In this document: positions 2,512-38,788 of the stretch, one piece after another | Numbering within the stretch: the first letter of the stretch is position 1 | Layout of the letters: every line of letters begins with the position of its first letter | IMG/VR virus record: IMGVR_UViG_2534681836_000019 | DNA: 39,148 nucleotides | Strand: one strand, 5' to 3' | Origin: a virus | Lineage: Duplodnaviria > Heunggongvirae > Uroviricota > Caudoviricetes | Program-made: the position numbers and the translations under genes | The notes under the pieces: generated by a model | Seen by the model: the letters and a program-made list of their open reading frames with translations, nothing else | The model's database searches: none | What the model was told of the DNA's origin: nothing

Positions 2512-3111
2512 TCAGAACTTATAACCGACACCCACGATGAAACCGTCAGTGCGCCAGTCGCCACTGCCGGAGCCTTCATAAGCAATATCAATGGCCACGG
2601 ATTCGGTCGGGTTAAACTGCACGCCAGCTCCCCACGCCAGAGAGGTGTCGCTGTGGCGACCGTCATCACTTCCGGTCAGCACATCGTGCGTTTTCCCCTT
2701 GTTGTCAGTTACGCGAAGATAATCCCCGGAGAAAGTCGACACACGGCTGTAAGCCACACCCGCCATCGCATACGCGCTGAACCATTCATTCACGCGCACA
2801 GACGGCCCCGCCATCACGCTGAACCAGCGGTTACGCACGGAATCTTCATGCCAGCGGGTATCGCTGTAACGGGTCAGCTGGCGATTCTTGTCTCCTGCAT
2901 AGCTGAATGACGTCACCATTCCCAGAGTGTCCGTAAACTCATAACGGTATTTCACGTTAATCCCGTTCAGATCATCACTGCCAGGGACGTTCGTCGAGGC
3001 ATGAAGATACCCCGCGCTCAGCGTGGACTGATGTTCAGACGCCCATGCAGGCGCACCGGATACGGCCAGACAAATGGCTGCGGACAAAATTGCTGCACAA
3101 ACTTTACGCAT
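2512..3111 (-). CDS. lom: Outer membrane protein Lom (Ail/Lom family)
   Basis: 199-aa ORF with signal peptide (MRKVCAAILSAAICLAVSGAPAWA) and C-terminal beta-barrel ending YKF; position between J and stf as in lambda. Confidence 0.9.
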   Translation of the reverse strand: MRKVCAAILSAAICLAVSGAPAWASEHQSTLSAGYLHASTNVPGSDDLNGINVKYRYEFTDTLGMVTSFSYAGDKNRQLTRYSDTRWHEDSVRNRWFSVMAGPSVRVNEWFSAYAMAGVAYSRVSTFSGDYLRVTDNKGKTHDVLTGSDDGRHSDTSLAWGAGVQFNPTESVAIDIAYEGSGSGDWRTDGFIVGVGYKF

Positions 3112-3181
3112 AATTACCTCTCGCTTTTCTGCAATAAAAAAGGCGTCATTCCTGACGCCCTTTATTGGGGTTATAAATATT

Positions 3182-6597
<3,416 letters not shown>

Positions 6598-23729: not shown

Positions 23730-24037
23730 TGCTGGTTCAGAGTTAAAAAAACTATGATTTTTTCATGATGTTACCGTAGTATGTGAGTATCCATCGAATA
23801 GATACCAAGCAAAAAAGCTCCCGAAGGAGCCTTCATTTTCACTTTTTTAAATCCAACGACAGACGGCTGGCATTTAAGTATTGTGAAATATTATCAAATG
23901 TAATCATCATTGATTTACAAAAGATACATTTTGCCCCGAAAGGATTCATGTCAGAAACATCAAAAGATGATGTTCTATACTGGGAACCATGACAACACGG
24001 GCATCTAAAGTGAATATGGTTTGTAATATTGTCTACC

Positions 24038-24250
24038 TCAAAGCGCCACTACATGAACAGCGGCAGGACCTTTAGGTCCGTTCTCAATACCAAATTCAAC
24101 TTCCTGATTCTCAGTTAATGTTTTGAAATCGTTGCTCTGAATTGCTGAGAAATGGACAAACACATCTTTGCTGCCATCTTTCGGCGTGATGAAACCAAAA
24201 CCTTTTTCAGGGTTAAACCATTTCACTAAACCAGTCATTTTGTTAGACAT
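24038..24250 (-). CDS. cspI: Cold shock protein, CspI-like
   Basis: 70-aa [41 protein letters not shown]... with RNP1/RNP2 cold-shock-domain motifs. Confidence 0.9.
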
Positions 24251-24612
24251 AATTATTACCTTTTGAAGAAATTAGCCCTTGGGCAGAATGGTCCGAAAAA
24301 AAATATCAGAGAGAAAAACCAACAAGGAAATCTCAAGAGGTACAAATAATAAAATTATAACAATGACTGCTTCAGATAAATTTGTAACAAACCAGAACAC
24401 CATTAACGCATGATTAACCACCCATAGCAAGGATTACTTTTGTAAAGAAAAACACAGCAATGAAAGAATAGCTTTATTTATTAATAAAACGTGTCATTCT
24501 GATTAAGACCTTTTATCTTACCCTTAAGATTTCAGGAATTTTGGCTCATGGAAGAGTCCTTTTTATTTAAATTTTACATTCCGCGATGTAAATGTTCCGA
24601 TTTAATATTACC

Positions 24613-26640: not shown

Positions 26641-26921
26641 GAGATTGTGGTGCTTTTTGTGGGAGTCATCCACTTACGCACTTTGTTTTGCGATGCCAGC
26701 AGTTAGCTTCTGCTGTGAAACTATTCATGCAGCAAACCTGCACTTCACCACAATGGTTAGCATACTTTTCCTGATTAAGATTTTGCCAAATATGCTAGCC
26801 ATTGTTTCATGTATTGGACCTCCTTACTTTTTATTAAAGAGATCCAATATTCACTACTCTGTCCGTATCTCTACTCAGGCATCAGCCTTCTTCGTTATCG
26901 TATACAGACGAGCGATGAATT

Positions 26922-27137
26922 TTAATCAGTAATGATGACATTTGCTGCTGCAGGACCTTTAGCACCTCTCTCTATAGAGAAGGTAACCTTTTGACCTTCA
27001 AATAAGGTTCGATAATTATCATTCTGAATCGCAGAAAAATGCACAAACACATCTTTACTACCATCAACAGGAGAAATAAAGCCGAAACCTTTATCAGCGT
27101 TAAACCATTTTACTAAACCAGTCATTTTATTTGACAT
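26922..27137 (-). CDS. cspB: Cold shock protein, CspB-like
   Basis: 71-aa [41 protein letters not shown]... with cold-shock-domain motifs. Confidence 0.9.
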
Positions 27138-27435
27138 TCTACATTCCTTAACTTGAGCCTTTCGGCATAAATGGTTTGCATAACAGAAACGACTTCGTAC
27201 TTAATTGGAGAGACTCAAAGAAGGAATAAGTGAATAACACCTGAAATGAGAACTGCTTTAGTAAACTACTTCGTATATCGTCTGTTCTTCAAACCGACGC
27301 AGTCATTAACTCATAGTTGAACATATGAAGCAATGTTTATTTTAGACATCCAGCCACCTTCAATCCTATCAAAAAAGTAGTTTTCTCCAGGAACGTGTGT
27401 ATGGTGCACCAGGTTATCAGTATTAAGGAGTTTTT

Positions 27436-27690
27436 CTGTCCCCTAAAATGACAGGAATTGTCAAAAACTTTGACTACAAAAGCAGCAAAGGTCTTATATT
27501 CCCATCCGATGGCGTATCGATGCCCAGCTTCACGTTTCAGCTCTCAATCTTCGAGATGCAGAAGAAATTACCACAGGATTACGCGTGGAATTTTGCTGGA
27601 TAAATGGTTCGCGTGGACCTTCAACTGCCAATGTTTATCCCGGGATGAGATTCAATATCTCTATTGCCCCATTTAAAGCACAAAAACCCG
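27436..27690 (+). pseudogene. cspF: cspF/cspH-like cold-shock gene, apparently frameshifted and lacking an in-frame stop before the terminator
   Basis: Frame X gives (CTG)[25 protein letters not shown]; the X-1 frame continues [42 protein letters not shown], matching the CspF/CspH family as recalled; junction near 27513. Confidence 0.55.
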
Positions 27691-27706
27691 CTTATAAGCG
27701 GGTTTT
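27683..27706. terminator. Bidirectional rho-independent terminator between cspF-like gene and Q (candidate tR-prime for the late transcript)
   Basis: aaaacccgc-ttat-aagcgggtttt perfect stem-loop with T-run on the plus strand and A/T tract on the other side. Confidence 0.65.
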
Positions 27707-27812
27707 CTACTTTTTTCTAAACGTCGGATACACAAAGCCCATCGTTGAGAAAATCTTATCCATATTTTTTGAAAAATGCAAACATCATGTCGCCATCTTC
27801 AGCAAAAATCAT

Positions 27813-28565
27813 TTATCTCGTCACCTTCCTCAATTGCGCTTCCGCGTATGCTTCTTCCTGCCAGCACTTTGTTACCAGTTTACCAATGACGTCCGCATAC
27901 CCCTTATACCACTGATAATCGGTCAGGTCTGGTACCAGCTTCTGGACATGACGTCGTGCCAGCGTGGTCGGTAAACGACTAAACCGGTTTCCATTACAAC
28001 GCCCACAAATCTTATATACCGGTACGCCATGAAACCGGGTTCTTTTTTCATCCAGAACAATCCCTTTACCCTTACACCCTCTGCACGCTGTGCTGACTTC
28101 GCCCTTACCATGGCAATGCTGACATAGTTCCTTCACCCATTCTTCCTTGATTACAGATTCCCCGCGTCTGTAGTGTTTCACCACTTCGCGCAATACATTA
28201 TAAAATCCCGTACCTGAACAATGCTCACAGCGAGCCTTACTTGCCGCAGACCTGGAGTAATCAGCAAAGGCAAAATTCACGAGGTAAGGAATAATCTGTA
28301 ACCGGATTTCTTCACTCAATTTGTTCAATGTCGGGTTATCCAGTGCCATCGCGTAATTTAGCAGGCCTTCAATCGCAAACTGAGCGTCCTGAACACCAAC
28401 TTTTGCCAGAAATAAGGCCAACCCAAGTGGTGCTTTCGACTGCACCATCCCCTGCGCTGCCATTACATCCGTAATTGTTAAACAACCGGTGCCTGTCGCT
28501 GGAGCGTCATCGCTCAATTTTGGAGATTTTGGGGAGTAATATTTTGGTAAGGCTTCAAGGTTCAT
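27813..28565 (-). CDS. Q: Late antiterminator Q (QuuQ-like, zinc-finger type); longest ORF starts at 28595
   Basis: 250 aa from Met11; Cys/His clusters [30 protein letters not shown]; position upstream of the lysis genes. Confidence 0.85.
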
Positions 28566-33840: not shown

Positions 33841-34206
33841 AAATCCCCCAGAGAATTGTCTGGGGACATTTTAGAATGGTTCAAAGGGGACATTACAGCT
33901 TGGTGTTAACACATCATAGCCCCTCCATTGCCTTCCGGCGGTTATCGGGCTACTATAATGTTGTCTAGGCATTACAGTGGAGCCCTTGGTTGATTGATAA
34001 AAAAATCTCCAGGGGCTTTCTGCTGTATACCGTCCACAAAACGCTTTCGGCATACAGCCTCAAGCGCCCGCAGCTATTCCAACGACTTTCGTATCTGCAA
34101 CAATCCTTTTATTCGCACGGCTAATTCCTCTGGTTAGCTCTTATCGCCTGCAAATAAATTTTTAACCTTTCCGTTTGATTTAAATTCCAGAAATGGAGAC
34201 TTTGTC

Positions 34207-35415
34207 ATGTCTTACAATCGACAGCCTGTCGCAGAAGATCCTATGCAGATATGGGGCGCTGTTGGTGTCCTTCTTATCCTGCTGCTATTCGTTATATGGT
34301 TATTCTTGCCGGAAGTGGTTTACGCCAGCTGCCTGATTCTTCATACCTTATGGGGACTGGTTGACTGGGGACCATTTCATAACTATGCAGCACCACGATA
34401 CAACCTGCTTGCCATGACCGGTAACAACGCCGCCAACATAAGCTATAGCCAGTGGGTTAACGTCATGGAGCAGACCATAGGTATTCTGTGGATGTACCTC
34501 TTACCTGTGACACTCTGGTGTTTGTGGGAGTGGTATCAACATCCGGGACAAAGTCGTTTCACCCGCAGACCAGTAGATATTACCCGACTGCCACACATCT
34601 TTGCTTCGTTGTCCCCTGCTATCGCCCCTGTACTGGCAGATGGTGATCCGGAAAAACTCTTTCATGGTGGCAAACGACCTGAACGGCGGGTTGCTCTCAC
34701 CCCGGAAGCATTTGTCGAGCAGCATACTCTCATCACCAATATGCAGCTCGATGTTGCAGCTGCAAGACGATGTTTCATGGCCCAGTTGGGTAAACCTTTA
34801 ACGTCCTGGAAAGACATGGCACCACATGAAAAAGCGCTCTTTGCCATATTTGGTCTTCAGTATTTCCTGGATGATCGTAAGGCAGCATTAAAGCTCATGG
34901 ATACACTGAACCTCTCATGCAGAATTAAAAGCAAACGGGACAGTGGGAAATTCTGTACCCCTGTTTATTCACTGGCCAAATCAGCTTTCCAGAGAGTGAT
35001 TAAAAGCAACGGAGCACAGCAATGGCTGAAACAACATCGCTACGTCCGCAGTGGGCTGGTCTGGCTGTATGCACATGACCTGCGGCTTACGCCACCCAAC
35101 TGGATTTGGCTGAAAGGCGTGGACAGGACGCTGTTTTATGCATTACACCGCGCCAATACCACGAAAGGATTTATTGAAGGCGCTGGCGTGGTGGCCGTTG
35201 CACGTGCAGAGGCCGAAGCCATGCGTTTTGGTCTTCCCTGCCCTGAACCCTGTGTTGATGAAGCGGTGGAAGGCTTACGGCGGGATATGCTCAGTCTCGG
35301 TCTTATCTGGGATGAACCACAACCAGATCGCGACCGGAAACGCCGCATCCTGACCAACTGGTCCCTCACCGACGACATCCTACCCCGCACACCTGCTACA
35401 GACAACGAATTCTGA
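34207..35415 (+). CDS. trbA: TrbA-like inner membrane protein (DotM/IcmP-like type IVB coupling complex component)
   Basis: 402-aa ORF with N-terminal transmembrane helices; first of three translationally coupled genes whose sizes (402/356/763 aa) match R64 trbABC as recalled. Confidence 0.6.
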   Translation: MSYNRQPVAEDPMQIWGAVGVLLILLLFVIWLFLPEVVYASCLILHTLWGLVDWGPFHNYAAPRYNLLAMTGNNAANISYSQWVNVMEQTIGILWMYLLPVTLWCLWEWYQHPGQSRFTRRPVDITRLPHIFASLSPAIAPVLADGDPEKLFHGGKRPERRVALTPEAFVEQHTLITNMQLDVAAARRCFMAQLGKPLTSWKDMAPHEKALFAIFGLQYFLDDRKAALKLMDTLNLSCRIKSKRDSGKFCTPVYSLAKSAFQRVIKSNGAQQWLKQHRYVRSGLVWLYAHDLRLTPPNWIWLKGVDRTLFYALHRANTTKGFIEGAGVVAVARAEAEAMRFGLPCPEPCVDEAVEGLRRDMLSLGLIWDEPQPDRDRKRRILTNWSLTDDILPRTPATDNEF

Positions 35416-35433
35416 TTATCCGGAGAACTGAAA

Positions 35434-36504
35434 ATGACAATCGAGTACTTTGCAACACGCATTGCAAAACATATTTCCGTGCAGGCAATCTGGCCGGATG
35501 GCAGGACAGAAATTATTGCCGTCCTTCCACGGGATGCCCTGTCAGGGCTGGTAACACGAAATAATCAACTGATTCATATAGCCTTTGACGCCATGGGCAC
35601 CCGTAACAGAGAAACCGTCCTGATTGATAAACAGGAGCATAACGCTGACCAGATACTTACAGCTATTGATTCCTGCCTGCGCCTTGAATATCTGATGGAA
35701 CGCCGCTTCAGCAGAACACCTTTGTTCCGTGGCATAATCGCCAGCGTTGTGCTGTTCGTAATGGCAACGATTGGCTTCTCTCTGTTCCGCTATGTTGATC
35801 GTGTATTCTGGGATGATACAACGCCTGAAGCAGTACAGACAGCAGGTGAGCCACGACTGCTTCCCCCTCACCTGAATCACACTGTGCCATTAAATGAAGG
35901 CATTCAACTCCCGGTTCCCCCGAAAAAAGACGTCCAGGTACCGGAGAAAACAATCACAAGCAAAAATCCGGAAGCCGCAGCTGCGCGACATAATCTGGCT
36001 ACTGTTCTGAAGCGGAACGCCGATCGGGGCATGTTTACCATCAACCTGTCATCCGGTCATGAACGAACCCTGTTCGCATTTCTCGATCCTGCCTGTCCTA
36101 ACTGCAGACTTCTGGAGCCGGCCTTAAAACGCCTGGCCAGCGACTTCAATGTCGTTATCTACCCGGTTTCAGTTATTGGTGGAGAGGAATCCACCGACCG
36201 TGTGGCACCACTGCTGTGTGAAAAAGATGCTCAGAAACGTGCTGCCAGCTGGCACCGACTGTATTCCGCAGATAACGGAATGATGACGCCATCAGAAGAA
36301 ACAACGCCTGCAGATGAAACATGCCTGAAAGCAGCCAGAGCTGCGATTGATGTTAACAATGTCGCCTTCCGTAAGTTCGGATTTGCCGGTACCCCATGGG
36401 TGCTGTCCGACACGGGCTGGCATCTGCCTACTGGAATTCTGCAGGAAACTGGCACGCTTAATTTATTCCTGAAAACCACCGACAGCGAGTCTGGCCATGA
36501 GTGA
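35434..36504 (+). CDS. trbB: TrbB-like thioredoxin-fold protein (DsbC-like thiol:disulfide interchange)
   Basis: 356-aa ORF with central transmembrane segment and CxxC active-site motif (FLDPACPNC); stop overlaps trbC start. Confidence 0.65.
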   Translation: MTIEYFATRIAKHISVQAIWPDGRTEIIAVLPRDALSGLVTRNNQLIHIAFDAMGTRNRETVLIDKQEHNADQILTAIDSCLRLEYLMERRFSRTPLFRGIIASVVLFVMATIGFSLFRYVDRVFWDDTTPEAVQTAGEPRLLPPHLNHTVPLNEGIQLPVPPKKDVQVPEKTITSKNPEAAAARHNLATVLKRNADRGMFTINLSSGHERTLFAFLDPACPNCRLLEPALKRLASDFNVVIYPVSVIGGEESTDRVAPLLCEKDAQKRAASWHRLYSADNGMMTPSEETTPADETCLKAARAAIDVNNVAFRKFGFAGTPWVLSDTGWHLPTGILQETGTLNLFLKTTDSESGHE

Positions 36505-38788
36505 ACATCGCGTTAACCCCGAGCTTTTACACCGTACAGCCTGGGGAAATCCTGTCTGGAATGCACTCCAGAGTCTCAATATCTATGGCTTTTACCTGGT
36601 GGCAAGTCTTGTGGCCAGTTTTATCTGGCCACTTGCATTACCGGCATGTCTGTTGTTCACACTGATAACGATGCTGGTATTTAGTCTGCAGCGATGGCGC
36701 TGCCCTCTTCGTATGCCCATGACGCTGGAATGTGCTGACCCGTCACAGGACAGAATGATTAAAAGAAGTCTTTTCAGCTTCTGGCCAACCCTGTTCCAGT
36801 ATGAGGTCATTCTGGAATCACCGGCCAGCGGCATATTCTATGTTGGTTATCAACGCGTCAGGGATATTGGCAGGGAGTTATGGCTGAGTATGGACGATCT
36901 GACCCGCCATATAATGTTTTTCGCCACCACCGGTGGCGGTAAAACGGAAACCATCTTTGCCTGGGCGATTAACCCACTTTGCTGGGCAAGAGGATTCACC
37001 CTTGTCGATGGCAAGGCACAGAATGATACGGCAAGAACGATCTGGTATCTGGCCAGACGCTTTGGACGTGAAGACGATGTGGAAGTCATTAACTTCATGA
37101 ACGGAGGAAAATCCCGCAGTGAAATCATTCTGAGTGGTGAAAAAACGCGTCCTCAGTCAAATACCTGGAATCCCTTCTGTTACAGCACTGAGGCATTCAC
37201 AGCGGAGACAATGCAGTCAATGCTGCCCCAGAACGTCCAGGGGGGCGAGTGGCAGTCCCGGGCCATTGCCATGAATAAGGCACTGGTATTTGGTACTAAA
37301 TTCTGGTGTGTGCGCGAAGGCAAAACAATGTCGCTGCAGATGCTCCGTGAACATATGACTCTCGAAGGGATGGCCAAACTTTACTGTCGTGGCCTCGATG
37401 ATCAGTGGCCGGAAGAAGCTATCGCACCGTTACGTAACTACCTTCAGGACGTTCCCGGTTTCGACCTGTCGCTGGTCAGGACACCATCAGCCTGGACGGA
37501 AGAACCCAGAAAACAACATGCTTATCTCTCCGGGCAGTTTTCTGAAACTTTCAGCACATTCACGGAAGCATTCGGGGATATTTTTGCTGAAGATTCCGGT
37601 GATATCGATATCCGTGACAGCATTCACAGCGACAGGATTCTGATGGTAATGATCCCCGCTCTGGATACATCAGCGCATACAACGTCTGCTCTTGGACGAA
37701 TGTTTATCACCCAGAAAAGTATGATTCTCGCCCGTGATTTGGGCTACCGCCTCGAAGGAACTGATTCCGATGCACTGGAAGTCAAAAAATATAAGGGGCG
37801 TTTCCCTTATCTGTGTTTCCTTGATGAAGTGGGGGCATACTATACGGACCGTATTGCTGTGGAAGCCACTCAGGTGCGTTCACTGGATTTTGCTCTGATT
37901 TTGATGGCACAGGACCAGGAACGTATAGAAGGACAGACAACAGCCACGAATACTGCAACACTGATGCAGAACACGGGGACAAAATTTGCCGGCAGGATTG
38001 TCAGCGAGGGTAGTACAGCCAGAACGCTGAAAAGCGCCGCCGGTGAAGAAGCCAGGGCGAGAATGAACAACCTACAGCGTCAGGACGGCATATTTGGTGA
38101 ATCATGGATTGACAGCCCACAAATCAGCATCCTAATGGAAAGCAAGATAAATGTTCAGGAGTTGATTGAACTTCATCCTGGCGAGTTCTTTTCTATTTTC
38201 CGGGGAGAAACCGTACCATCAGCATCATTCTTCATCCCTGACGATGAGAAAAGCTGCAGCAGCGATCCCGTGGTTATAAACAGGTATATCAGCGTGGATG
38301 CGCCACGCCTGGACCGTCTCCGCCGTCTTGTTCCCCGTACTACTCAACGTCGAATACCGTCACCGGAAAATGTCAGTGCCATCATTGGCGTCCTGACTGC
38401 AAAACCCTCCAGAAAAAGACGAAAAATTCGCACAGAGCCGCACACGATCGTGGATACATTCCAGCAACGCATTGCAGGACGTCAGGCGGCTATGGCAATG
38501 CTGGAAGAGTACGACACGGATATCAACGCACGTGAAAGTGCCTTGTGGGAAACAGCGGTGAATACGCTAAAAACGACCACACGGGAAGATCGACGAATTC
38601 GCTATATCACGCTGAACAGACCAGAACTACCTGAAACAAAAGAGGAAAATCAGATATCAGTGAGAGCAGAAAGAGCAGGTATAAACCTGTTAACGCTTCC
38701 ACAGGACAATAACCACCCGACAGGGCGTCCTGTAAACGGGTTTCATCATAAAAAAACCAACCGTCCGGACTGGGACGGAATGTACTGA
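36497..38788 (+). CDS. trbC: TrbC-like type IV coupling protein ATPase (DotL/IcmO, VirD4/TraG family)
   Basis: 763-aa ORF; N-terminal transmembrane helices, Walker A FFATTGGGKTE, Walker B-like LCFLDEVG. Confidence 0.7.
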   Translation: MSEHRVNPELLHRTAWGNPVWNALQSLNIYGFYLVASLVASFIWPLALPACLLFTLITMLVFSLQRWRCPLRMPMTLECADPSQDRMIKRSLFSFWPTLFQYEVILESPASGIFYVGYQRVRDIGRELWLSMDDLTRHIMFFATTGGGKTETIFAWAINPLCWARGFTLVDGKAQNDTARTIWYLARRFGREDDVEVINFMNGGKSRSEIILSGEKTRPQSNTWNPFCYSTEAFTAETMQSMLPQNVQGGEWQSRAIAMNKALVFGTKFWCVREGKTMSLQMLREHMTLEGMAKLYCRGLDDQWPEEAIAPLRNYLQDVPGFDLSLVRTPSAWTEEPRKQHAYLSGQFSETFSTFTEAFGDIFAEDSGDIDIRDSIHSDRILMVMIPALDTSAHTTSALGRMFITQKSMILARDLGYRLEGTDSDALEVKKYKGRFPYLCFLDEVGAYYTDRIAVEATQVRSLDFALILMAQDQERIEGQTTATNTATLMQNTGTKFAGRIVSEGSTARTLKSAAGEEARARMNNLQRQDGIFGESWIDSPQISILMESKINVQELIELHPGEFFSIFRGETVPSASFFIPDDEKSCSSDPVVINRYISVDAPRLDRLRRLVPRTTQRRIPSPENVSAIIGVLTAKPSRKRRKIRTEPHTIVDTFQQRIAGRQAAMAMLEEYDTDINARESALWETAVNTLKTTTREDRRIRYITLNRPELPETKEENQISVRAERAGINLLTLPQDNNHPTGRPVNGFHHKKTNRPDWDGMY

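Follow-up and report, generated by a model that had tools for sequence, protein, structure and literature searches.

A probable cspF pseudogene with three lesions in a lambdoid prophage

Genes at the cspF locus and their prophage setting

The window (the whole 39148-nucleotide stretch analysed here, IMG/VR record IMGVR_UViG_2534681836_000019) represents a larger lambdoid prophage, in which the terminase and portal genes resemble those of phage cdtI and the Q/lysis region resembles those of phages PhiR42_1 and Tritos. The genetic context of a disrupted cold-shock gene on the plus strand (27436–27637) was examined. On one side it is flanked by a divergent cspB gene on the minus strand (CDS at 26922–27137, from the open reading frame list and PGAP), which has a 5' untranslated region of the cspA thermoregulator type (26906–27298; Rfam RF01766, 161.6 bits). 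On the other side lies a convergent Q antiterminator gene, ydfT/quuQ, also on the minus strand (27813–28565; annotated by PGAP and matching Pfam Antiterm, PF03589, with 181 bits).

The gene cspF is a non-cold-inducible cold-shock-domain moron gene of Qin-like lambdoid prophages of E. coli. The CspF and CspH proteins have a low aromatic content and form a clade restricted to Enterobacteriaceae, and their function is unknown (PMC6719143). When a 501-nt query around the site was used to search 5,426 complete E. coli genomes, matches were found in 2,181, and the feature at the matching position was always named cspF. At loci with 100% identical DNA, in strains DEC9B and ATCC 25922, the genes are arranged as rzpQ-rrrQ-ydfR-essD-ynfU-cspB-cspF-ydfT-ydfU-rem-hokD, the moron region from Q to lysis of a Qin-like lambdoid prophage. 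The order is the same in K-12, and the remnant occupies the position expected of a cspF orthologue, between the divergent cspB and the convergent Q gene. The K-12 cspF gene (b1558), which is located in the cryptic prophage Qin and encodes a 70-aa protein of the CspF/CspH clade, shares not only the locus and neighbours but also the position of the Shine-Dalgarno sequence and a downstream hairpin. The DNA of the remnant aligns with K-12 cspF from end to end, and the best protein matches to the repaired allele are all named CspF. On the combined basis of synteny and sequence, the segment at 27436–27637 is identified as cspF specifically. The chromosomal paralogue cspH (b0989) belongs to the same CspF/CspH clade and shares ~81–83% DNA identity with K-12 cspF over ~205 nt, but it is found at another locus, beside appA in many genomes, and is not the gene in the window; it was present in nearly all E. 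coli (about 5,390 genomes of the set). The initial annotation, which described a disrupted gene of cspF/cspH type, was thus borne out, with the cspB-cspF-ydfT(Q)-ydfU synteny and the PGAP label pointing to cspF.

The remnant retains codons 1–67 and two bases of codon 68 of the original 70, with one base missing. Once repaired in frame, the 68-aa sequence matched the Pfam cold-shock domain (CSD, PF00313) with 60.7 bits (E = 1.3e-16; gathering cutoff 27). The fragment in the second frame on its own scored 30.9 bits (E = 2.5e-7; profile positions 25–64), again above the cutoff of 27, whereas the 22 in-frame residues of the N-terminus fall short of the length needed for a Pfam score of their own and were assigned through base-for-base alignment with K-12 cspF. 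The CSD profile is therefore matched, but the uninterrupted reading frame of ~65–70 codons needed for the whole five-strand domain is absent, as the longest frame from the N-terminus encodes 51 aa and contributes just 22 CSD residues.

Further features were observed elsewhere in the prophage. A second cspA-type thermoregulator (minus strand, 24011–24396; Rfam RF01766, 112.8 bits) precedes a 70-aa CspI-like gene (CDS at 24038–24250), indicating that the prophage carries two csp morons of the cold-inducible type, a cspI-like gene and cspB, in addition to what is very probably a dead cspF. A sok antitoxin RNA (minus strand, 33912–34069; Rfam RF01794, 133.5 bits) presumably belongs to hokD, a type I toxin-antitoxin module located downstream of rem in related loci. 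At the far side of the prophage (34207–38788, plus strand), three co-directional reading frames encode proteins of 402, 356 and 763 aa. The 402-aa protein matched the DotM C-terminal domain (168.9 bits), the 356-aa protein gave a weak, sub-threshold thioredoxin-like match, and the 763-aa protein matched mad8, a PADLOC candidate-defence model (58.4 bits). These may form an anti-phage or accessory cassette that replaces the relBE/flxA region of K-12 Qin.

Start region, reading frame and 3' end of the remnant

A Shine-Dalgarno-like AAGGAG (27425–27430) lies 5 nt before a CTG (27436–27438) and 17 nt before an ATG (27448–27450), consistent with the earlier view that the motif is spaced for the former and not for the latter. 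The K-12 counterpart, AAGGAA, is also located 5 nt before the annotated TTG start. As the CTG aligns with this TTG, it corresponds to the position of the genuine start, which makes the ATG at 27448 the fifth codon of cspF (MSRKM... in K-12). The 5' end of the PGAP pseudogene is placed at this CTG, and PGAP starts the intact allele of the type found in strain MB46 (WP_024172454.1, a 70-aa CspF) at the same CTG, in agreement with the possible CTG start that had been raised. Non-ATG starts are annotated even in intact alleles, TTG in K-12 (retrieved locus 2356–2568) and CTG in the MB46 type (retrieved locus 1537–1749). In E. coli, CTG is a very poor initiator. No sigma-70-like promoter was found upstream of cspF in a promoter scan at the threshold of the tool, and a comparison with Rfam gave no match on the strand of cspF, the cspA thermoregulator hits belonging to cspB and the cspI-like gene.

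Alignment with K-12 identified a 1-bp deletion after codon 26 (27512/27513; GAT GGT CGT in K-12 and GAT GG- CGT in the window), at a site outside any homopolymer run. Because of this deletion, the cold-shock domain is divided between two frames, and three-frame translation agreed with the initial annotation in placing the N-terminal motif and the rest of the domain in different frames. No single continuous Csp reading frame was found, the domain being split at 27512/27513, and Csp similarity was present in the second frame, with the CSD score given above. The frame left by the deletion (27448–27603, plus strand) encodes 51 aa, of which 22 are CspF residues and 29 are out of frame, and ends at a TAA (27601–27603); it had no Pfam match. 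The tail of the frame that carries the end of the domain forms a mechanical 129-aa reading frame (27585–27974, plus strand), which runs through a hairpin into the antisense strand of the Q gene and in which only the residues homologous to CspF 27–68 match the CSD. It is not a gene.

The abnormal 3' end that had been noted, with the domain-end frame passing through the hairpin into Q antisense, was confirmed, as no stop codon is present in this frame until 27974. It could be traced to a 258-bp deletion with its junction at 27637/27638, located by alignment to K-12 and MB46. The deletion takes away the whole of ynfS, the spacer and, from the end of cspF, CTT TCA TGA (Leu-Ser-stop) plus the final base of the TAC codon before it, such that the stop codon that follows ...NVYLS is absent. 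In K-12 Qin, ynfS is a 29-codon gene located directly after intact cspF, and YnfS is a detected 29-aa protein (PMC6001520). With the end of cspF and ynfS both removed, the remnant now abuts the hairpin, which is 45 nt away. Computation showed no microhomology at the junction. A CATGAG direct repeat nearby was considered as a cause of the deletion, but it does not explain the endpoints observed.

The hairpin (27683–27706) is flanked by an A-run and, on the opposite side, by a T-run, and was recognised as intrinsic-terminator-like on both strands by a terminator scan and by folding. It consists of 10 pairs, 5 of them G-C, with a 4-nt loop and a plus-strand tail of CTACTTTTTT. The plus-strand fold has a free energy of −14.5 kcal/mol (z = −3.3; 0 of 200 shuffled sequences folded as well) and the minus-strand fold −21.4 kcal/mol (z = −4.3), with the tail UUUUUGUGCUUU. 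These properties are those of a predicted intrinsic (Rho-independent) terminator. The hairpin is retained in K-12, where it lies downstream of ynfS, as well as in MB46 and Tritos. A weak promoter-like sequence, TTGCAT-17-TAAGAT, was also seen on the minus strand (27779–27751) between the Q stop codon and the hairpin. This site and the hairpin (27671–27779, minus strand) could represent the late promoter and Q-antiterminated terminator of the prophage, analogous to PR'/tR', so that the main role of the "cspF terminator" may lie in the phage late operon.

Distribution of the lesions and history of the allele

The three lesions were sought in the 5,426 complete E. coli genomes using diagnostic queries of 54–55 nt, in which every 28-mer seed spans the lesion. 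The frameshift state was found in 214 genomes, the deletion junction in 212 and the CTG context in 255, and the ~40 extra genomes with the CTG context carry mostly the intact, MB46-type allele. The intact K-12-type arrangement of cspF and ynfS was found in 1,410 genomes. The frameshift site with the missing base restored as T (GGT), the one restoration covered by the DNA search, was found in none of the 5,426. Several independent assemblies of ATCC 25922 agree at the locus, and the same frameshift and the same 258-bp deletion are present in phage Tritos. Tritos, a prophage of strain LF82, is induced spontaneously and forms plaques, and the lysogen expresses its cspI, cspB and hokD morons (PMC9928086). 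The presence of the same lesions in a plaque-forming phage indicates that the dead cspF travels on active as well as cryptic phages.

The pseudogene status of this cspF is already known, as the RefSeq/PGAP label is in place. At loci with 100% identical DNA, PGAP records a cspF pseudogene that is "frameshifted; incomplete; missing C-terminus" and maps to 27436–27638 of the window. The pseudogenes KIM47_RS13430 (DEC9B) and DR76_RS17085 (ATCC 25922) are 100% identical at the DNA level and carry the same three lesions, as does ECE24377A_RS10390 (E24377A), which is ~99% identical. The PGAP note on such features also includes "partial in the middle of a contig", and further near-identical loci bear the pseudogene label as well. 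A literature search for this particular cspF pseudogene found nothing. In strain MB53 (retrieved locus 788–1485), an IS1A was observed immediately upstream of the same cspF remnant, and cspB, ynfU and the lysis genes are absent from their usual place between cspI and cspF, an arrangement that indicates further decay of the region.

Over the 67 codons aligned, the allele in the window differs from K-12 cspF at 20 nucleotides. In addition to CTG in place of TTG, the 1-bp deletion and the loss of codons 69–70 and the stop codon, there are nine amino acid replacements relative to K-12 CspF (R3P, T11N, G14Y, G17S, T22F, V30A, R55W, L59S and A64T). Of these, Tyr14, Ser17 and Trp55 are also found in an intact CspF from E. 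albertii and Ala30 in an intact E. coli allele. For the comparison with K-12, dS was 0.21 and dN 0.08. As the resulting dN/dS ratio of 0.40 is not 1, most of the divergence arose while the gene was still constrained, or the allele was imported by recombination. Upstream of about 27358, the flanks share 98–99% identity with K-12. The allele thus appears to come from a lineage, either old or imported, on which some constraint still acted before the gene was broken. Among seven loci of the pseudogene clade that were compared, three variants were found in the coding remnant: 27597 T/C, 27627 G/C and one at 27457–8. All are nonsynonymous, which, allowing for the small numbers, is consistent with relaxed constraint and drift after inactivation. 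At 27597, the window has TGG (Trp55), whereas E24377A, Tritos and others have CGG (Arg55).

The intact allele of the MB46 type, found in about 38 genomes, matches the window exactly in its 5' region as far as about codon 13, with the CTG, Pro3 and Asn11 shared. From about codon 14 it is K-12-like and in frame, with a stop codon, the 258 bp and ynfS. It looks like a mosaic or recombinant of two allele lineages.

A single apparently intact copy of the window allele was found. When 5.8 billion protein clusters were searched, a single protein with 100% identity was recovered (encoded on GenBank accession number CP123276.1), the next best match being 88% identical. In CP123276.1, the cspF gene (retrieved locus 3001–3213) appears intact and encodes a 70-aa CspF that shares 100% identity with the window allele after repair. 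Across 5 kb, this sequence has the window state at 81 SNPs and the K-12 state at 2, but of six indel events it has the K-12 state at five. The 258-bp block is 100% identical to K-12, and window-type SNPs resume 14 nt and 18 nt outside its ends; the flanking 250-nt bins have 26 and 19 differences from K-12 (about 8–10%). The CP123276.1 genome is 4,641,690 bp in length, within 38 bp of MG1655 (4,641,652 bp), and it is absent from the RefSeq complete-genome set. The intact CspF is probably an artefact of reference-guided assembly, and hence a protein that does not exist. As one indel follows the window, this reading is probable and not proven. If the copy is genuine, an intact ancestor of the allele still exists, which would show nothing about whether the copy in the window works.

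Interpretation of the locus

It is very likely that the segment at 27436–27637 is a non-functional cspF pseudogene with three independent lesions that has been transmitted both vertically and by phage. The CTG at the start position, which is TTG in K-12, would weaken initiation. Whether initiated at the CTG or at the ATG, translation would yield ~22–26 CspF residues followed by 29 unrelated ones and would end at the TAA at 27601–27603, after 51–55 codons. Owing to the 258-bp deletion, even a frame corrected for the shift would reach the terminator without a stop codon. Non-stop mRNAs are substrates for tmRNA rescue, and reading of any transcript in the domain frame would produce such an mRNA. 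From the sequence of the locus, we infer that no functional CspF is made. Loss of cspF would be tolerated because it belongs to the accessory genes of the prophage and nearly all E. coli carry the paralogue cspH.

The disruption would be illusory if the indel and the missing 3' end were sequencing or assembly errors in a gene that is really intact. Single-base indels are the commonest assembly error, and the same allele appears intact in CP123276.1. However, the identical 1-bp deletion and the identical junction in 214 and 212 complete genomes from many laboratories and hosts, together with their occurrence in Tritos, indicate that the lesions are not a sequencing error. The agreement among the independent ATCC 25922 assemblies and the separate deposition of Tritos argue in the same direction, as does the location of the deleted base outside a homopolymer run, and CP123276.1 itself looks like a reference-guided fill-in. 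An error of this kind is scarcely credible. A real shift in frame could alternatively be overcome in expression, by a programmed −1 ribosomal frameshift or by transcriptional slippage near 27512 that restores the domain, and in favour of such recoding each half of the domain can still be recognised and the Shine-Dalgarno sequence has been preserved. Against it, no slippery heptamer of the form X XXY YYZ was found at the shift site (CCA TCC GAT GGC GTA TCG), where C CGA TGG CGT is non-slippery, and no A/T run that could support polymerase slippage was found around 27512. After a shift there would still be no stop before the hairpin, the frame running on to 27974, and the start position is a CTG. 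As the intact alleles of K-12 and MB46 are read in a single frame and need no shift, the frameshift is a derived lesion and not a conserved feature, and a recoded functional gene is extremely improbable.

The direction of the change at the 3' end could also be reversed, with the state of the window ancestral and K-12 carrying a 258-bp insertion that brought in ynfS. The junction offers no microhomology as a sign of a simple deletion mechanism, but the segment that is missing starts within the coding sequence of cspF, and the undeleted state is in the majority (1,410 genomes against 212). As every full-length CspF retrieved, from K-12, MB46 and other E. coli and E. albertii proteins, ends in ...NV(Y/W)LS followed by a stop, the state of the window is a derived deletion, and there is next to no likelihood that K-12 holds the insertion. 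The remaining alternative accepts the lesions and supposes that their outcome has been put to use, either with the 51–55-aa frame (from 27436 or 27448 to 27603) encoding a new small protein or with the 258-bp deletion selected for the loss of ynfS or for a shorter antisense leader of the late transcript. In its favour, a viable phage that forms plaques and about 4% of complete E. coli genomes carry the allele, the ATG and the Shine-Dalgarno sequence have both been preserved, and the deletion lies just downstream, in the direction of late transcription, of a hairpin able to end transcripts from the Q side. Co-option of this kind, if true, would explain why precisely this allele is retained in Tritos and in ~4% of E. 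coli genomes. However, prophage hitch-hiking accounts equally well for the frequency, the out-of-frame tail has no family match, the three variants among seven loci are nonsynonymous and scattered over both frames, and the copies, at least 98.9% identical, are too alike for a test of selection. Co-option is therefore considered very unlikely, and inactivation of cspF, with decay of the remnant, is preferred.

As the remnant is cspF by synteny and sequence and has neither an uninterrupted reading frame nor a stop codon of its own, "cspF pseudogene" is the correct label. The locus should be annotated as one pseudogene and not as two hypothetical reading frames, and the 129-aa read-through frame antisense to Q should not be annotated as a gene. 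Though of little import beyond correct annotation, the cspF remnant provides a clean case of the decay of an accessory moron in a lambdoid prophage.
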